Below are positions 186 to 14,260 of a stretch of 64,000 nt of DNA, piece by piece; the stretch's first letter is position 1, and each line of letters starts with the position of its first letter. The position numbers and the translations under genes were made by a program. Location of the stretch: the NCBI GenBank assembly GCA_012838995.1, contig DUOD01000013.1, positions 28,561 to 92,560 of the forward strand. The letters are read 5' to 3'. The notes below the pieces were generated by a model that saw only the letters and a program-made list of their open reading frames with translations, made no database searches and was not told where the DNA came from. The DNA is from Clostridiales bacterium. GTDB lineage: Bacteria; Bacillota; Clostridia; DUOD01.

Positions 186-445
186 AAATAAAAAAACCTG
201 GTCCCTGTTAGTAAGGGACGAGGATATTCCTCGCGGTGCCACCCTAATTGGATATAAATCCCGCTTACAAATTTAACGCATAAATACGTACCTATCTACT
301 CTACCGCTTATTTTGACAGGTCGACTCCGAGGCGTTTTTCTATTACCGGTTGTACTTAAAGGGTGCTCTCAATTAAAACACCCTCTCCCTGTTAAGCCCT
401 TGTAATATACTTTTCCCTTCATCGTCTTTACAATATTATATTTTT
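186..445 (-). promoter_or_regulatory. T-box riboswitch leader (tRNA-sensing antiterminator) controlling hisS
   Basis: The reverse complement of about 222-249 reads AATTAGGGTGGCACCGCGAGG, the conserved T-box sequence. It is followed by an intrinsic terminator hairpin (GTCCCTtactaacAGGGAC) and a U-tract, at about 188-224 on the plus strand. The element lies between the upstream gene stop (464) and the hisS start (161). Confidence 0.7.
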
Positions 446-463
446 AATGGAATATATTATATC

Positions 464-1978
464 CTATTGATTTTTTAATGTCAACATTTCAAGCATTTCC
501 CTTTTGTTGTCTATCACCTGATGTATTCTATTGACATATACCCCGGTATCCTTGGGGTTTGATATCCTCTCTATTCTGTTGTTATTCAACACGGCTTTTG
601 AAATAGCCCCTGCTCCCAAAGCGATGATTGAATGGCTATCCTCCATGGTGGTGATATTGTATAAACCTTCCTTTCCCTTTCTGCAAAAGCCTATGTTTTC
701 TTCATTTCCATGCATATATTTTTGTCTGTATAGATAATAAGGAATCATATCCATCTTTCTTAATGAGTCATAGACCATGGCGGTATTACAAATGTAATTG
801 TGACGAAGTGTATTTCGGCTCTTTACCGCTTTTTCCTTAAGGTGCGAGCCCTTCTTTATTGCCAGGGCGTGTACCGTAACGCTGTCGGGTTTTAAATCAT
901 CAAGAAAACCTAGGGTATTTGCTACCATGGTGTCATCTTCTCCGGGCAGACCGACTATAATATCCATATTAATATTTTTAAACCCTATTTTTCTGGCAAT
1001 GTAATATTTGTCAATGATATCTCGGGCAGTATGTTTACGTCCTATAAGTTTAAGGGTTTTTTCGTTAAAGGTTTGGGGATTTATACACAGCCTGTTTATG
1101 CCATATCCATATAACAGGGTTAACTTGTCTTTGTCAATGGTATCCGGCCGTCCGGCTTCAATATTATATTCTTCCACTCCTTCAAAGGAAAAGCTTTGCC
1201 TGATACAATCCAGCAGCTCCCTTAACTGATTTATATCAAGGGAAGTAGGCGTACCGCCGCCTATATATATATTGAGGGGTCGGATACCCGCATGGCCCAG
1301 CATCCGTCCGGTACACCTGATCTCCTCTAGAAGACAGTTCAGGTATTCTTCCAAATTACTGTTCCGAGTACCCATTACCTGGGATACAAAGGAACAATAT
1401 ATGCACCTGCTGGTACAAAAGGGGATCCCTATATAGATATTTACACCGTCACGGGCAATACTGGCTAATACATCTTGCTGGATATCGGATACCTCCATTA
1501 ATAAGCTGCCTTTGGAATTCGACAACATTAATTCGTCAGTTAAATATTGCCAAATTTCGGCAGCGGACACGCCCTGTGCCCTCATCTGGTTAACCAGTTT
1601 TACAGGCCGTATCCCGGTAAGTATGCCCCAGGGAGGGCGGTAACCCGTGTACCTAGTTAAAAGCTTTAATACGCATCTTTTTAAGCCATATTTAAAGGCT
1701 TTATCCTTTATATAACCTTCGGGCAACCCATAAACGGTTTCCCCTTCCGTCCACACCCGCCGGTTGTCACACAGACGGGTGGTAATTTGAACGGCATCGG
1801 GCTTTAACTTTTTGTGTTGTACATGGATTGCAAATTCACCGGTATCCAACAAAGATTTCAAACTTGTATACTGTCCTTGGCATCGAATTACTTTTATATG
1901 GGCCAATGGATAGAAAACATTAATAATATTTCTTGTATCATTCTCCAATGCATTGTCAGAAAGGAAAAGATAAACCAT
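464..1978 (-). CDS. hemZ: Radical SAM coproporphyrinogen-III dehydrogenase-like protein, HemN/HemZ family (504 aa)
   Basis: CxxxCxxC radical SAM motif (IGIPFCTSRCIYCSF). The length and N-terminal extension are typical of HemZ-type enzymes, and HemN-like C-terminal region motifs are present. Confidence 0.65.
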   Translation of the reverse strand: MVYLFLSDNALENDTRNIINVFYPLAHIKVIRCQGQYTSLKSLLDTGEFAIHVQHKKLKPDAVQITTRLCDNRRVWTEGETVYGLPEGYIKDKAFKYGLKRCVLKLLTRYTGYRPPWGILTGIRPVKLVNQMRAQGVSAAEIWQYLTDELMLSNSKGSLLMEVSDIQQDVLASIARDGVNIYIGIPFCTSRCIYCSFVSQVMGTRNSNLEEYLNCLLEEIRCTGRMLGHAGIRPLNIYIGGGTPTSLDINQLRELLDCIRQSFSFEGVEEYNIEAGRPDTIDKDKLTLLYGYGINRLCINPQTFNEKTLKLIGRKHTARDIIDKYYIARKIGFKNINMDIIVGLPGEDDTMVANTLGFLDDLKPDSVTVHALAIKKGSHLKEKAVKSRNTLRHNYICNTAMVYDSLRKMDMIPYYLYRQKYMHGNEENIGFCRKGKEGLYNITTMEDSHSIIALGAGAISKAVLNNNRIERISNPKDTGVYVNRIHQVIDNKREMLEMLTLKNQ

Positions 1979-8804: not shown

Positions 8805-8832
8805 ATAAAAGCAGCGTAGCTGCTTTTATTTT
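8805..8832 (-). terminator. Intrinsic terminator downstream of secF; palindromic, so it could act in both directions
   Basis: The sequence aaaaGCAGCgtaGCTGCtttt sits immediately after the secF stop codon. Confidence 0.6.
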
Positions 8833-9719
8833 CTATGGGGTGCCAGTTTTTTAGTCCGACTTCTTTCGGTCCAAACAGCCCAAATTGGGCCGGCTATGAG
8901 TAACGATGAATAGGTCCCGGCTATTATTCCGATTATAATGGGTAGGGCAAATTCCTTTATGGACTCAACACCTAATATATACAGTACGACGATTACTATC
9001 AAGGTAGTCAATGAGGTGTTTATTGACCGGACAACTGACTGTTTAATGCTTTTATCCGTTAATTCTTGGATAGTACATTTTCTAAGTTTCTTGGTATTTT
9101 CCCGGATCCTATCGAATATTACTATGGTATTGTTAATCGAATAACCGATTATCGTCAATACCGCCGCAATAAAGGTGCTGTTAATCTGTATCCTGAATAT
9201 CAGCAAAAAAGCGGCAATTATCAAAACATCATGAACCAGAGCAATTATAGCAGCTACACCCGACTTAAATTCAAATCTTATCCATATATAAACAAGCATA
9301 AACCCGCAGGACAGCACAACGGCTAAAAGGGCGTTTTGGGTAAGTTCTTTGCTCATTACGCTGCCCACCTTCTCCACCGACAAAATATCCTTTTCGGCTA
9401 GTTGAAATTGCTTGCTTATGTCATCAATAACGGCACTGCTAACCCTGTCTTCGTCGGGGATATTGGGCATTCTTATTAAGACCTCGGTATTACCATCCCC
9501 CGCTCCGCTTACAACGGCTTCATCCAATCCATGTTGGTTGAGTATAGACCTGATATCCCCCACATCATAGGGTTGACCTATATTTAAATGTATTAGGGTG
9601 CCGCCTTTAAAGTCAATGCCCAAATTAAAACCGTTATTTATTATACCGAATATTAAGCCTATTACAATAATACAAAGGGGGATAGCAATCCAAACCTTTG
9701 CTTTAGATACAATTTTCAT
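8826..9719 (-). CDS. secF: Protein translocase subunit SecF
   Basis: Multi-pass membrane protein; the SecF family sequence follows secD with a 4-nt overlap. Confidence 0.9.
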   Translation of the reverse strand: MKIVSKAKVWIAIPLCIIVIGLIFGIINNGFNLGIDFKGGTLIHLNIGQPYDVGDIRSILNQHGLDEAVVSGAGDGNTEVLIRMPNIPDEDRVSSAVIDDISKQFQLAEKDILSVEKVGSVMSKELTQNALLAVVLSCGFMLVYIWIRFEFKSGVAAIIALVHDVLIIAAFLLIFRIQINSTFIAAVLTIIGYSINNTIVIFDRIRENTKKLRKCTIQELTDKSIKQSVVRSINTSLTTLIVIVVLYILGVESIKEFALPIIIGIIAGTYSSLLIAGPIWAVWTERSRTKKLAPHRK

Positions 9720-10963
9720 CCCTTAACCCCCCTGCTATACAGTTTCTTATTCTTTAAATTAAGCCCCATAACAAGTCGCAGTAAAAATTTTGTTAAGGTA
9801 ATGGCGGTAAACAAGCTTACTACTATACCTATACCCAGTGTAAGGGCAAAACCTTGAACAGGGCCCGTCCCAACAATATACAATACTATTGTGGCAATAA
9901 GGGTGGTTATATTGCTATCCAGTATGGCCCTGAAGGCCTTTGAAAATCCCGAATCCAGAGAAGACCTAAGGGTCTTTCCGGTTTCCAGCTCTTCCTTAAA
10001 TCTTTCGAAGATAATCACATTGGCATCCACTGCCATGCCCACCGACAATATAATTCCAGCTATTCCCGGCAGTGTTAAGGTAGCTCCTATTCCTGCCAAT
10101 ATAATCAACACTATTAATAAATAGGTTATCAGGGCGATATCGGCCATTAAACCCGGCAACCGATAGAATGCTATCATAAACACGAATACCGCTATCAGGC
10201 CGATAAATCCCGCCTGGATACCCGTGGTCAAAGCATTGGATCCTAAAGTGGCACCCACCGTCCTTACTTCCACCGGTTCAATGGGTATGGGCAGAGCACC
10301 GCTTTTAATCAAACTTGCCAGTTCCGCTGCATCGTCTATGGTCATGCTGCCACTTATGCTGGCCTGGCCGTTGGGTATGGCTTCATTTACAACTGGCGCG
10401 GATATTACCACGTCATCCAATACGATTTTTATTATTTTGTCAATATTTTCCTGTGTGCCCTTATAAAATTTTTCAGCGCCTTCGTCGTTTAATTCGAGAA
10501 AAACCATGGGTTTCATACCTTCGCCGTAATTAGCTTCGGCATTGGCCACATCTTTTCCGTCTATTATTACATTGCCCTCTTCGTCTATAAATTCCAGTTT
10601 GGCTGTCTTGCCCAACAACTCCAAGGCTTCTTCATGGTCATCTATATCAGGGATTTCCACCCTGATTTTTTCCCTTCCCTGGGTGGCTATGGTAGCTTCT
10701 GTCAAGCCCCTGTCATCTAAGCGTTTTCTAAGTATTTCCATAACGCCGGATAATTTGCTTTCCAGCTCAGGGTCATTTTCAACTCCCTGGGGTTCATATA
10801 CTATATACACGCCTCCCCGCAGGTCCAGACCCTGTTTTATGGCATCCCGGATGGGTATTACCGTATATCTGCCGACATCAAGGCCGAAAACAGCTACATA
10901 TGAAAGAAAGCCAAGGATTGCTATATATACCAGTAGCCATATTAAGCTTTTTTTCCTGCCCAT
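9716..10963 (-). CDS. secD: Protein translocase subunit SecD
   Basis: SecD periplasmic domain plus a C-terminal six-helix transmembrane bundle. Confidence 0.9.
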   Translation of the reverse strand: MGRKKSLIWLLVYIAILGFLSYVAVFGLDVGRYTVIPIRDAIKQGLDLRGGVYIVYEPQGVENDPELESKLSGVMEILRKRLDDRGLTEATIATQGREKIRVEIPDIDDHEEALELLGKTAKLEFIDEEGNVIIDGKDVANAEANYGEGMKPMVFLELNDEGAEKFYKGTQENIDKIIKIVLDDVVISAPVVNEAIPNGQASISGSMTIDDAAELASLIKSGALPIPIEPVEVRTVGATLGSNALTTGIQAGFIGLIAVFVFMIAFYRLPGLMADIALITYLLIVLIILAGIGATLTLPGIAGIILSVGMAVDANVIIFERFKEELETGKTLRSSLDSGFSKAFRAILDSNITTLIATIVLYIVGTGPVQGFALTLGIGIVVSLFTAITLTKFLLRLVMGLNLKNKKLYSRGVKG

Positions 10964-11104: not shown

Positions 11105-11770
11105 CTATAAAAGTTTGGCATTATTAATTATAAGTTCAAAGTGGCAATTGAGGAAATTAGCAGCCCTTCTACACAGTATCATTCTCGATAAAAATATTTC
11201 AAAGTATTCTATCACCGGACAGATTTCAATGTCTATATTTATGTTCAGCGATATGATGCCTTCTTTCGGGAATATATTCAAACATGAATGCTGGGCTGCA
11301 TAGTTTACCCTGTCATGGATATCAAAGGTGGCGAAATCGTCATTCCTCACCCTGCTTCTATGGACATCTGACTTATCCGCAAGAATAAGGGCGGCGGCCA
11401 CATTGTTTACCGGATGGCCGAATTCCTCATCGTGGTTGCCTATGGCAGATATGATAGTGGTTATTTCCCGCCGGGGCATGTCCATGTTTTTTAGAAGGTT
11501 TAATGTAAATAACGCTCCTATTTGGCTGTGGTCGTTTCTGTTTATCATATTGCCGATATCATGGAGATAACCTGCTATGGCAGCCAATTCCGCCTCCCTT
11601 TTGGAATATCCCAGCTTTTTCAGTATGTTCCTTGCCCTGTTTGCCACCAGCATTCCATGGCGCCTGCCATGTTCCGTAAAGCCCAGTACTCTTAGGCATT
11701 CATTGCTATATTCCAGATATTCGTTTATTTCGTCGTTGTTTTTTATATCATTATAGGTAATTTCATTCAT
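11105..11770 (-). CDS. HD-domain phosphohydrolase-like protein
   Basis: H...HD motif (HGRRHGM ... YLHDIGN). The longest ORF begins with TTG at 11812 and has no RBS; the ATG at 11770 (MNEITY...) is the more likely start. Confidence 0.55.
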   Translation of the reverse strand: MNEITYNDIKNNDEINEYLEYSNECLRVLGFTEHGRRHGMLVANRARNILKKLGYSKREAELAAIAGYLHDIGNMINRNDHSQIGALFTLNLLKNMDMPRREITTIISAIGNHDEEFGHPVNNVAAALILADKSDVHRSRVRNDDFATFDIHDRVNYAAQHSCLNIFPKEGIISLNINIDIEICPVIEYFEIFLSRMILCRRAANFLNCHFELIINNAKLL

Positions 11771-11832
11771 GACAATACCATAATAAATATATTTAATTAT
11801 ATATTGTGGCAAAAAGAGCGGATGTTATGTAT

Positions 11833-13182
11833 TCATTCCGATAAAGAAGCCTTGATCCACATGGCGCATTCTATCCTTTTTTTCTCCATCTCACAACCTA
11901 TCTTGTAAGTGGAATGGATATCGTTAGATGAATAATAGGCACTGGCATGGCAGCCCCCGCTACAGTAAAACTTGGCCCAGCATTTCTTGCACTCCTCTTT
12001 TTTCAGGACATTACACTTCCTAAATTCTTCAACTGTTTTCCGGTTTTCTATACCCTCCTTTACATTACCTATGCAAAAATCCTCAATGCCCACAAATTGG
12101 TGGCAGGGATATATATCACCTTCGGGAGTTACTGCCACGTACTCGGTACCGGCTCCGCAACCCATCACCCTTTTAATCACACAAGGCCCCTGGGTAAGGT
12201 CTATATTAAAATGAAAAAAGTTAAAGGGGTTGCCTATTTTATACCGTTTGACATATTCTTGGGCCAAGGTTTCGTATTCCTTAAAAATTGTCGGTAAATC
12301 CTCTTCCCTTATGGCATAATCCTTATTCTTATCTGCTACCACTGGTTCTACGGATATATTTTTAAACCCTAAATCAGCAAGATGAAGAACGTCCTCGGAA
12401 AAGTTAAGGTTATAACGGGTGAAGGTACCCCTGACGTAAAAGCTTTTATCTTCCCGCATCTCAACGGCCTTTTTAATCTTTGGGAGTATTAAATCATAGG
12501 TTCCCCTGCCGTCTGCTTGATATCTCATCCTGTCATTGGTTTGTCGTGTACCGTCTATACTCAATACCAGGTTGTACATCTTATCGTTTATAAAGGATAA
12601 AAAATCATCGTCCAGTAGCAGTGCGTTTGTTGTAAGGGTAAAACGGATGTCCTTATTACTTTGTGCGGCCCGTTCATTGCCGTAGTCCACCAATTGCTTT
12701 ATTATATCTTTGTTTAGCAAGGGCTCGCCACCAAAGAAGTCAACCTCCAGTTGACGACGGTTACCGGAATGGGAAATCAAAAAATCTATGGCACCTTTGC
12801 CCGTTTCACAGTCCATCACCAACCGGCGGCCCTGAAAACTGCCGGTGGATGCAAAGCAATATTTGCATCGAAGATTGCAGTCATGGGCCACATGAAGACA
12901 CAAGGCTTTTATTATACCGTTATGATGAAGATCCATATCATCATAATAATCCGGGCTAAACAACAATTCCTTTTGCTGTAAGGTCTTCAGCTCCAAATAG
13001 GCCTGGGTTATATCCTCTACATCGTATTTCTTTTTTAAAATATCTATTATTTTATCTCTGCTGCAGGAAGTAAAATAATTCAGTACTTCCCATGCCACTT
13101 CATCCAAGACATGAACAGCTCCGCTGTTAACATCCAGTACCATGAATTTATCGAATAATGAAAACTTGTGAATCATGGGCAT
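11833..13182 (-). CDS. Radical SAM/SPASM-domain peptide maturase of the SCIFF system (449 aa)
   Basis: N-terminal CxxxCxxC motif (CNLRCKYCFA) and a C-terminal Cys-rich SPASM region (CxxCxxxxC...CGGC). Its N-terminus resembles thioether-forming SCIFF maturases, and it lies immediately downstream of a SCIFF precursor gene. Confidence 0.85.
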   Translation of the reverse strand: MPMIHKFSLFDKFMVLDVNSGAVHVLDEVAWEVLNYFTSCSRDKIIDILKKKYDVEDITQAYLELKTLQQKELLFSPDYYDDMDLHHNGIIKALCLHVAHDCNLRCKYCFASTGSFQGRRLVMDCETGKGAIDFLISHSGNRRQLEVDFFGGEPLLNKDIIKQLVDYGNERAAQSNKDIRFTLTTNALLLDDDFLSFINDKMYNLVLSIDGTRQTNDRMRYQADGRGTYDLILPKIKKAVEMREDKSFYVRGTFTRYNLNFSEDVLHLADLGFKNISVEPVVADKNKDYAIREEDLPTIFKEYETLAQEYVKRYKIGNPFNFFHFNIDLTQGPCVIKRVMGCGAGTEYVAVTPEGDIYPCHQFVGIEDFCIGNVKEGIENRKTVEEFRKCNVLKKEECKKCWAKFYCSGGCHASAYYSSNDIHSTYKIGCEMEKKRIECAMWIKASLSE

Positions 13183-13240
13183 AATAATACTCCTTTTTGA
13201 AATGTCCTGACAATTATGGGTCGAAGGGTAAAAAAACCAG

Positions 13241-13265
13241 TAAAAAAAGCAGCCTTGCTGCTTTT
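13241..13265 (-). terminator. Intrinsic terminator/attenuator between the SCIFF precursor gene and its maturase
   Basis: The minus-strand RNA reads AGCAGCaagGCUGCU followed by UUUUUUU. It sits in the 90-nt gap between the precursor stop (13273) and the maturase start (13182). Confidence 0.6.
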
Positions 13266-13272
13266 ATATGTA

Positions 13273-13416
13273 TTATTTGCTGCGCTCACAATTTTGGTTA
13301 GCAACCGTACAGGAAGTCTTACAAGCAGACTGGCACGATACCTGGCACTCGCCGCATCCGCCCTTGCTTAAGGATGTTTTTAAGTTTGAACTGTTGAGTG
13401 TCTTTATATGTTTCAT
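13273..13416 (-). CDS. SCIFF (six cysteines in forty-five) ribosomal precursor peptide, 47 aa; absent from the ORF track because it is under 60 aa
   Basis: Hand translation gives MKHIKTLNSSNLKTSLSKGGCGECQVSCQSACKTSCTVANQNCERSK. There are six Cys in the C-terminal half in the characteristic GGCGECQ.SCQSACKTSC pattern. A strong RBS (AAGGGGGAC) lies 7 nt upstream of the ATG. Confidence 0.85.
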   Translation of the reverse strand: MKHIKTLNSSNLKTSLSKGGCGECQVSCQSACKTSCTVANQNCERSK

Positions 13417-13428
13417 ACGAAGTCCCCC

Positions 13429-13839
13429 TTATTTATTGTACATCCCTATAATACCACCAACGGCACCGATTATCAATCCCAAAATAATGTCTGAAAAAAT
13501 TATTTTGACTGAAAGGGTTCCGTCGCTAAAGAAAGAATTAATTATCATAGAAAAAATAATATATGTTACTCCGATTATTGCTCCTATCAGCCAACCCTTT
13601 GTTTTTATTTTTCGTACCCCATATATGGAAGCCACCACGATACTGGCAATTTTAATGACCTGAATAACGGAAGGGATTACCGTTTCACTTATTTGTGAGA
13701 CATTTAGAATTAAGGCAAATATTACAAAGCAAATAAGGGAAAGTATAATCCCTAAAACAGCAGCCTTTAATATAATAACAACAATACGGGGTATTCTGCC
13801 TTTTTCATTGCCGTTTTTTTTTCTTCTGGGCTTTCTCAT
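13429..13839 (-). CDS. Small polytopic membrane protein (136 aa) encoded upstream of SCIFF, possibly of the SCIFF-associated membrane-protein family
   Basis: Basic N-terminus followed by 3-4 hydrophobic helices. Its position, yajC then membrane protein then SCIFF then maturase, recalls the conserved clostridial arrangement. Confidence 0.55.
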   Translation of the reverse strand: MRKPRRKKNGNEKGRIPRIVVIILKAAVLGIILSLICFVIFALILNVSQISETVIPSVIQVIKIASIVVASIYGVRKIKTKGWLIGAIIGVTYIIFSMIINSFFSDGTLSVKIIFSDIILGLIIGAVGGIIGMYNK

Positions 13840-13920
13840 ATTATCACCCCTAATAATTGTATCTAGTGTAATTTATGTTTGTCGGATATACATTATTACT
13901 TGATAAAATAAAAAAAGACA

Positions 13921-13957
13921 AAATAAAAAAAGCAATTATAAAATTGCTTTTTTTATT
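13921..13957 (-). terminator. Intrinsic terminator after yajC
   Basis: The minus-strand RNA reads AAGCAAUUuuauAAUUGCUU followed by UUUUUUUAUUUU, immediately 3' of the yajC stop. Confidence 0.6.
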
Positions 13958-13966
13958 TTAGTTTAA

Positions 13967-14260
13967 TTATTCTTCATCGTCATCATCATCTTCTTCATTG
14001 TCCACACTTCTAATGGACCATCTGGCCATAACAAGCTTTACCTTATCCGGACCAACTTCTATGGTGATAACCTCATCCTTTATACGTACAATCTTGCCGT
14101 ATATACCGCCTATGGTGGTGACGTTGTCACCCACCTTCAATGCCTCAAGCATTTCCCTCATCGCTTTGTCCCTTTTTTGCTGGGGTCTTATCATCAGGAA
14201 ATAAAACACTAAAATGATGATTATAAATGGTAGGAAAGCACCTAATTGTCCTCCTTGCAC
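13967..14260 (-). CDS. yajC: Preprotein translocase subunit YajC
   Basis: 97 aa with a single transmembrane helix, the conserved YajC core, and an acidic C-terminal tail (DNEEDDDDDEE). Confidence 0.85.
   Translation of the reverse strand: MQGGQLGAFLPFIIIILVFYFLMIRPQQKRDKAMREMLEALKVGDNVTTIGGIYGKIVRIKDEVITIEVGPDKVKLVMARWSIRSVDNEEDDDDDEE

Follow-up and report, generated by a model that had tools for sequence, protein, structure and literature searches.

An intact SCIFF ranthipeptide locus of an uncultured Clostridiales bacterium and the hairpin conserved between its precursor and maturase genes

The stretch of DNA analysed here (64,000 nucleotides, hereafter the window) belongs to a Clostridiales bacterium (assembly GCA_012838995.1, contig DUOD01000013.1, positions 28,561 to 92,560 of the forward strand) and carries an ordinary, intact SCIFF ranthipeptide system of an uncultured lineage, in which a hairpin followed by a U-tract separates the gene of the six-cysteine precursor peptide, scfA, from the gene of the maturase, scfB. 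An initial annotation, made from the letters of the window alone, had read the locus in this way and read it correctly; the identification of a SCIFF locus as such is practically certain. What our analysis adds is a single, new comparative result, namely that the hairpin between scfA and scfB is conserved in most SCIFF loci. It thus belongs to the design of these loci and most likely acts as a partial terminator, which would provide more precursor than enzyme. We put the probability of the statement as a whole (an intact SCIFF locus together with the partial-terminator mechanism) at about two in three. No paper linking SCIFF with a terminator was found by a literature search that lay outside the primary SCIFF papers. 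The elements in question are the following.

13273..13416, minus strand: scfA, SCIFF precursor of 47 amino acids (open reading frame and translation; TIGR03973, PF13165)
11833..13182, minus strand: scfB, radical SAM/SPASM thioether-forming SCIFF maturase of 449 amino acids (TIGR03974; alignment with CteB)
13230..13265, minus strand: intrinsic-terminator-like hairpin with U-tracts after scfA (fold; equivalent position in other SCIFF loci)

Conservation of the hairpin in SCIFF loci

To collect SCIFF loci, one genome per species (GTDB) was scanned for a degenerate DNA motif of the SCIFF core, and at least 120 loci were obtained, from Lachnospiraceae, Oscillospiraceae, Christensenellaceae, Peptoniphilaceae, Acetivibrio, Alkaliphilus, Veillonellaceae, Selenomonadaceae and others. 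The hairpin census covered the 106 of them with an identifiable scfB, the median scfA-scfB spacer being 86 nucleotides (nt). A site was counted as terminator-like when a single hairpin with a free energy of -8 kcal/mol or lower ended 0-2 nt before an 8-nt window containing at least five U. Our analysis revealed a hairpin with a U-tract in the spacers of 88 of the 106 loci (83%) and in 90% of the spacers of at least 40 nt, as against 9% of dinucleotide shuffles of the spacers, 15% of same-length pieces taken inside scfB and 41% of the spacer reverse complements. The stems (median 10 pairs, -16 kcal/mol) are unrelated in sequence between lineages, and no conserved sequence was found around them across the compared loci. 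What selection maintains is therefore the structure, together with the U-tract on the sense strand. A second sample, picked from metagenomes by ScfB similarity and partly redundant, has the hairpin in 26 of its 35 loci.

One gut lineage, whose peptides end in NQSCENSNR (loci L141, L146, L154, L160, L163 and L164 of our collection), has spacers of 123-176 nt with no hairpin plus U-tract by the criteria used. It may offer a natural control for the role of the hairpin.

In the census loci the median distance from the scfA stop codon to the start of the hairpin is 19 nt, and that from the end of the hairpin to the scfB start codon is 38 nt, the latter distance being below 45 nt in 64% of the loci. 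A gap this short, which the U-tract and the ribosome-binding site have to share, leaves no room for a promoter with a 5' untranslated region, so that in most species scfB would be reached only by read-through. In this case the element should either terminate transcription partially or protect the 3' end of scfA in a polycistronic RNA that is processed, and in both cases the precursor mRNA would exceed the enzyme mRNA, as it does in lantibiotic and sactipeptide operons. The second possibility implies that the full polycistronic RNA is cleaved and that its scfA part is shielded from 3'-5' exonucleases, with the same excess of the precursor. Processing of this kind has been described for other operons of RiPPs (peptides made by the ribosome and modified after translation), and conserved stable stems right after scfA fit it equally well. 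However, the U-tract is specific to one orientation (83% sense vs 41% reverse complement) and represents a terminator trait that a stability hairpin does not need. It is therefore unlikely, in our opinion, that the hairpin is mainly a 3'-end stability element.

The hairpin of the window

In the window, the scfA stop codon is followed on the transcribed strand by UAAUACAUAU-AAAAGCAGC-AAG-GCUGCUUUU-UUUACUGGUUUUUUU. The hairpin proper, AAAAGCAGC-AAG-GCUGCUUUU (13265..13245), begins 8 nt after the stop codon; its 9-bp stem (13265..13257 paired with 13253..13245) closes on the loop AAG and consists of a 5-bp G+C-rich core, GCAGC-AAG-GCUGC, extended by four A:U pairs. It runs into a U7 tract (13248..13242), and a second U7 follows five bases further (13236..13230); thus, the hairpin and U-tract that had been placed initially at 13241..13265 are indeed there. 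A generic terminator scan lists this hairpin on the plus strand only and misses it on the minus strand, as the first Us there are taken up by the A:U pairs that lengthen the stem. When the 5-bp GC core is taken as the stem, seven Us follow on the minus strand.

The short stem (five G:C-rich and four A:U pairs), as well as the result of the generic scan, in which terminator-like sites in the region are no commoner than in shuffles (3 vs 3.1), would be compatible with a functionless chance inverted repeat. Yet the fold (-10.4 kcal/mol, z = -2.5) is equalled by only 4 of 200 shuffles, and the position of the hairpin is conserved, with 83% of the loci having it against 9% of the shuffles. It is this conservation across homologous spacers, not the single fold, that places the scfA hairpin beyond chance, and we regard a chance origin as extremely unlikely.

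The element was described in the initial annotation as attenuator-like, which is acceptable loosely, in the sense of a partial terminator. As to a regulated attenuator, riboswitch-like or translation-coupled, whose read-through would respond to a signal, the distance of only 8 nt from the scfA stop codon could speak for it, as a terminating ribosome would cover the 5' arm of the hairpin. However, no competing structure was found: the whole 108-nt spacer folds no better than its shuffles (z = -0.5) and contains no antiterminator of note. The Rfam scan of the region gave no family at the gathering score, only two sub-threshold, chance-level matches located elsewhere (E 0.4-0.5). Moreover, the hairpin of other loci starts typically beyond the ribosome footprint (the median of 19 nt given above), and the surroundings of the stems lack any shared sequence. 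Regulated attenuation is, accordingly, a very unlikely explanation.

With -9 to -10 kcal/mol, compared to the family median of -16 kcal/mol, the hairpin of the window is weak for its family, and its place among the weakest of the set would suit leakiness. Nevertheless, several observations weigh against our interpretation. First, about 17% of the loci have no detectable hairpin. Second, a pattern search found at 8808..8826 (minus strand) another hairpin, whose 9-bp stem is identical (AAAAGCAGC/GCUGCUUUU) and which has the loop UAC and then UUUUAUUUUU; the match has two mismatches, both in the loop, while 0 matches are expected in shuffles of the window. This hairpin overlaps the secF stop codon and must be the operon-end terminator. 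Because the same stem closes the operon after secF, stem strength alone does not show that the scfA hairpin is leaky, and the latter could be an efficient rather than a leaky terminator. Duplication, convergence and a terminator stem favoured in this genome are the candidate explanations of the shared stem. Third, the gap between the hairpin and scfB in the window (58-63 nt) is above the family median, and a promoter-like match, TTGTCA-18-TATTAT (13213..13184, 10/12), lies in it with the -10 element abutting the scfB start codon; with these features, an independent, possibly leaderless, scfB transcript is conceivable. Finally, and apart from the hairpin, residue 26 of the window precursor (codon 13339..13341, minus strand; context GECQ-V-SCQ) is Val. 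Among 120 peptides (119 other loci and the window) this position is Thr in 104, Ala in 12, Ser in two and Asn in one, Val being found in the window only, and the Val26 copy would lack a crosslink acceptor if Thr26 serves as one in the mature peptide.

The hairpin might accordingly be taken for a full-stop terminator of a transcript spanning scfA and the membrane-protein gene upstream of it. In this case the 58-nt gap would hold a promoter for scfB (and for the gene of an HD-domain protein that follows it), and the mRNA might be leaderless, with the ATG at 13176 as its start. The -10 element of the promoter-like match ends 7-8 nt before this ATG, the second in-frame one of scfB, and most homologues begin at the residue aligned to the second Met; the identity of the stem with that of the operon-end terminator points in the same direction. 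The counterarguments are as follows. A good Shine-Dalgarno sequence, AAAGGAG, stands 7 nt before the first ATG of scfB, which argues for a leadered message, and the maturase CteB starts likewise, with M-A-M-IHKF. Promoter-like matches are frequent in the AT-rich DNA of this region (23 vs 12.7 expected), and the post-hairpin gap of most SCIFF loci, with its median of 38 nt, is too short for a promoter. Taken together, these arguments make a separate scfB promoter distinctly unlikely.

We suppose that partial termination would operate in the following way. The membrane-protein gene preceding scfA would be on one transcript with it, and the hairpin and U-tract 8 nt past the scfA stop codon would end or stabilize most of these transcripts. 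A minority would read through into scfB, probably continuing into the HD gene, and it is this minority share that would keep the substrate peptide in excess over the enzyme. The initial annotation had already ascribed to the hairpin a role in setting high precursor and low enzyme amounts. The conservation of the equivalent hairpin across SCIFF loci fits this proposal, although the leakiness of the hairpin in the window is only what we infer.

The precursor and the maturase

The open reading frame (ORF) at 13273..13416 (minus strand) is intact, ends with TAA and translates exactly to MKHIKTLNSSNLKTSLSKGGCGECQVSCQSACKTSCTVANQNCERSK. Its start codon is preceded, with a 6-nt spacer, by GGGGGA, which corresponds to the ribosome-binding site proposed initially. 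The peptide exceeds by far the cutoffs of the curated models, scoring 82.7 bits on TIGR03973 ('six-cysteine ranthipeptide SCIFF', cutoff 50, model positions 1-43 of 43) and 84.6 bits on PF13165 (cutoff 27). Its leader is MKHIKTLNSSNLKTSLSKGG, and the core cysteines are Cys21, 24, 28, 32, 36 and 43. The resulting spacing after G19-G20, C-x2-C-x3-C-x3-C-x3-C-x6-C, is the same pattern as in 120 loci, and the peptide aligns, the CKTSC segment included, with 120 SCIFF peptides of other species.

As for the crosslink, a single thioether Cys32-Thr37 was reported for the SCIFF peptides Tte1186a and CteA and then reassigned to the gamma carbon of Thr34 in co-expression, while the crosslinking of other SCIFF cysteines is unsettled (PMC8326336). 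In the loci L001-L120, position 37, the first-reported acceptor, is Thr in 67 and Gly in 52, the latter being of the SCGV/SCGI type and originating mostly from Oscillospiraceae-like metagenome-assembled genomes (MAGs). The conservation of Thr34 is not judgeable in the same loci, as the search pattern fixed K33-T34, but all 35 loci selected by ScfB similarity have Thr34. On these sequence grounds the assignment Cys32-Thr34 seems to fit better than Cys32-Thr37, since position 37 is Gly in 52 loci and Thr34 is invariant in the ScfB-selected sample.

In one Lachnospiraceae MAG (L024, 5563..5839, plus strand), two complete SCIFF units, each with a leader and a six-cysteine core, are fused in a single ORF of 91 amino acids, with one scfB downstream.

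The radical SAM/SPASM enzyme predicted initially at 11833..13182 passes the model TIGR03974 ('thioether cross-link-forming SCIFF peptide maturase') with 654.3 bits at a cutoff of 425, while on the 'not_ScfB' exception model NF040492 it scores 571.5, under the cutoff of 855. Of the solved structures, CteB of C. thermocellus (5WGG/5WHY) matches it best (615 bits, residues 1-445 vs 4-450), with an identity of 58.7% to 5WGG over 445 residues. The radical SAM motif CX3CX2C is represented by C102-NLR-C106-KY-C109, aligned to C107/C111/C114 of CteB. The seven-cysteine SPASM motif of the two auxiliary clusters, CX9-15GX4C ... CX2CX5CX3C ... C, is present in full as C342-x12-G-x4-C360, C398-x2-C401-x5-C407-x3-C411 and C430, all of which fall on CteB cysteines, and the additional C334 and C439 are likewise conserved with CteB. 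The SPASM models TIGR04085 and PF13186 match with 70.2 and 28.3 bits. At the N-terminus, residues 14-62 give a weak match to the PqqD/RRE-like family PF05402 (20.8 bits, just below the cutoff of 23.4) and can be aligned gap-free with the CteB N-terminus. On the models of PapB (freyrasin) and QhpD the enzyme reaches 292 and 288 bits, which is below the cutoffs of 340 and 453.

The 47-residue precursor translated from scfA would be bound by its conserved leader (MKHIKTL...) to the putative N-terminal RRE/PqqD-like domain of ScfB. The radical SAM cluster and the two auxiliary SPASM clusters of the enzyme would then form one or more thioethers between Cys and Thr in the CKTSCT segment, presumably from Cys32 to Thr34 or Thr37, as in the studied homologues.

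Three findings had been named beforehand as contradicting the identification: no match of the peptide to SCIFF models, a broken reading frame and the absence of SPASM cysteine clusters from the enzyme. We observed instead model matches, an unbroken frame and complete clusters.

Genomic neighbourhood

The genes around the SCIFF pair follow, on the minus strand, the order queA, tgt, yajC, membrane protein, scfA, scfB, HD protein, secD, secF. All coordinates of the initial annotation agree with the ORF list and the raw sequence, and so do the neighbours named in it (yajC upstream, the HD-domain protein and secDF downstream). The remaining features of the region are listed below.

13429..13839, minus strand: small, polytopic, hydrophobic membrane protein of 136 amino acids, TIGR04086/DUF3792 (TIGR04086, PF12670)
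13967..14260, minus strand: yajC, upstream of the membrane-protein gene
11105..11812, minus strand: HD-domain protein, longest ORF (11105..11770, 221 amino acids, as called on the public contigs L121 and L122; PF01966, 31.6 bits)
9716..10963, minus strand: secD, downstream of the HD gene
8826..9719, minus strand: secF, downstream of secD
13920..13955, minus strand: hairpin with U-tract after yajC (fold)
8808..8826, minus strand: operon-end hairpin with U-tract after secF (pattern search and sequence)
13448..13476, minus strand: candidate promoter-like site TTGATA-17-TATTAT with TG (consensus scan, 10/12, extended -10)

The distance from the scfA stop codon to the scfB start is 90 nt on the same strand, which is within the limit of about 500 bp between precursor and maturase used in PMC5300114. 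The membrane-protein gene, which the initial annotation had described as a small polytopic one, matches TIGR04086 (76.5 bits, cutoff 30) and PF12670 (69.3 bits, cutoff 31.3) and ends 12 nt before scfA; the two genes are probably co-transcribed. The candidate promoter at 13448..13476 falls within the 3'-terminal part of the membrane-protein gene, some 30 nt ahead of scfA. The hairpin after yajC is strong (-17.6 kcal/mol, z = -5.8, equalled by none of 200 shuffles) and sets the SCIFF block apart from yajC, so that the block does not merely continue the yajC transcript. At the junction of scfB and the HD gene, folding of 11800..11840 gave no terminator-like structure, and the consensus scan placed a strong promoter-like site (11/12) ahead of secD.

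Neighbours in other species were counted with an iterated local hidden Markov model on the sampled SCIFF loci, as single-sequence phmmer under-detected the membrane protein (6 vs 29 ORFs). A TIGR04086-like gene immediately precedes scfA in 23 of 101 loci, and the membrane protein was thereby ruled out as an obligatory SCIFF component. yajC is upstream of the SCIFF pair in 13 of 83 loci and secD downstream of it in 16 of 57, and an HD protein follows scfB in one of 72, that of Acetivibrio straminisolvens. Judging from the loci compared, the universal SCIFF core consists of scfA and scfB, and the membrane protein, yajC, HD and secDF neighbours are lineage-specific.

The adjacency of yajC or secD, found in roughly a sixth to a quarter of the sampled species and in several families, probably reflects a retained ancestral position of the pair between yajC and secDF. 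One could go further and regard the pair not as an independent natural-product cluster but as a housekeeping module wired into a Sec-accessory operon, whose abundant, terminator-boosted peptide would act at or through the membrane and the translocon and not as an antibiotic; the frequent presence of a TIGR04086 membrane protein next to the pair and, in the window, the stem shared by the hairpins after scfA and secF could be added in its favour. We consider this idea improbable, and the same applies to the roles it would involve, such as an export route, a membrane partner or an envelope signal.

Near the first letter of the window, a T-box leader is located at 211..431 (minus strand; RF00230, 116.6 bits, gathering score 93), with a promoter-like site of 12/12 just upstream of it, at 484..456.

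Omission of scfA by gene callers

The initial annotation had pointed out that scfA was missing from its list of ORFs. This is plausible, as the gene, with 47 codons for amino acids, is below the default length threshold of such lists, longer antisense ORFs overlap it, and three of four public calls miss it. The identical ScfB protein is present on four public contigs, and on one of them (ENA contig L121) scfA is called, as PF13165:SCIFF. On a JGI contig (L122) a spurious opposite-strand ORF of 51 amino acids is called instead (L122 2812..2967, minus strand, corresponding to 13216..13371, plus strand, of the window), and on two Logan contigs nothing is called between the membrane protein and ScfB. 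The missing call is a known annotation artefact of small ORFs and not biology; that scfA is missed or replaced in three of four public copies of the locus calls for caution in RiPP surveys of metagenomes. Apart from near-identical copies, the nearest other public ScfB from metagenomes is at most 60% identical; copies of 97% are truncated and have no upstream DNA, and the metagenome search found no public relative between 60% and 97% identity.

Significance and comparison with known systems

The window itself carries little weight, as it contains a standard SCIFF system that is recognized at once by curated models. Of more consequence is the near-universal hairpin that SCIFF loci of Clostridia and Negativicutes have in the scfA-scfB spacer, in most cases too near scfB for a separate promoter: it predicts a large excess of the precursor and provides a simple testable handle on the expression of a widespread and poorly understood peptide.

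SCIFF is widespread in Clostridia (PMC8326336), and a 2026 preprint describes conserved ranthipeptide clusters, at most one per species. The statement of the initial annotation that the function of the mature peptide is unknown is partly outdated. Disruption of the system in C. beijerinckii lowered the expression of sporulation genes and raised that of agr, which was taken as a quorum-sensing role, so far as the work of Chen et al. (2020) is related in PMC8102284 and PMC8326336. The TIGR03973/TIGR03974 pair of the window is also that of the SCIFF ranthipeptides of Caldanaerobacter subterraneus (Tte1186a/Tte1186), C. beijerinckii and C. ljungdahlii, among which in vitro work has demonstrated one Cys32-Thr thioether. 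These copies have been studied experimentally, and the role in solventogenic clostridia may not carry over to the lineage of the window.

Outside SCIFF, PapB of the freyrasin system and QhpD share with ScfB the superfamily and the chemistry (non-alpha thioethers). Their substrates are, however, a peptide with Cys-Asp repeats and the gamma subunit of QHNDH, respectively, whereas the substrate in the window is SCIFF. With respect to expression, partial terminators after the precursor gene occur in other RiPP operons, for example between nisA and nisB and between sboA and albA. As in the window, a short and strongly expressed precursor gene is followed immediately by a hairpin there, and the modification enzyme is encoded further downstream in the same orientation.

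The best-characterized relatives are CteA and CteB of Acetivibrio (Clostridium) thermocellus. CteA has the same peptide architecture and numbering as the window ScfA, from Cys21 to Cys43 with C32-K-T34-S-C-T37, and differs from it in having Thr at position 26, where the window peptide has Val. All radical SAM, SPASM and extra cysteines of CteB are aligned with those of the window ScfB, but the window copy comes from a different, uncultured lineage. The closest parallel in gene order is provided by A. straminisolvens (L084), which has the same succession of scfB, HD gene, secD and secF, and in which scfA is followed by a hairpin and a U-run too.

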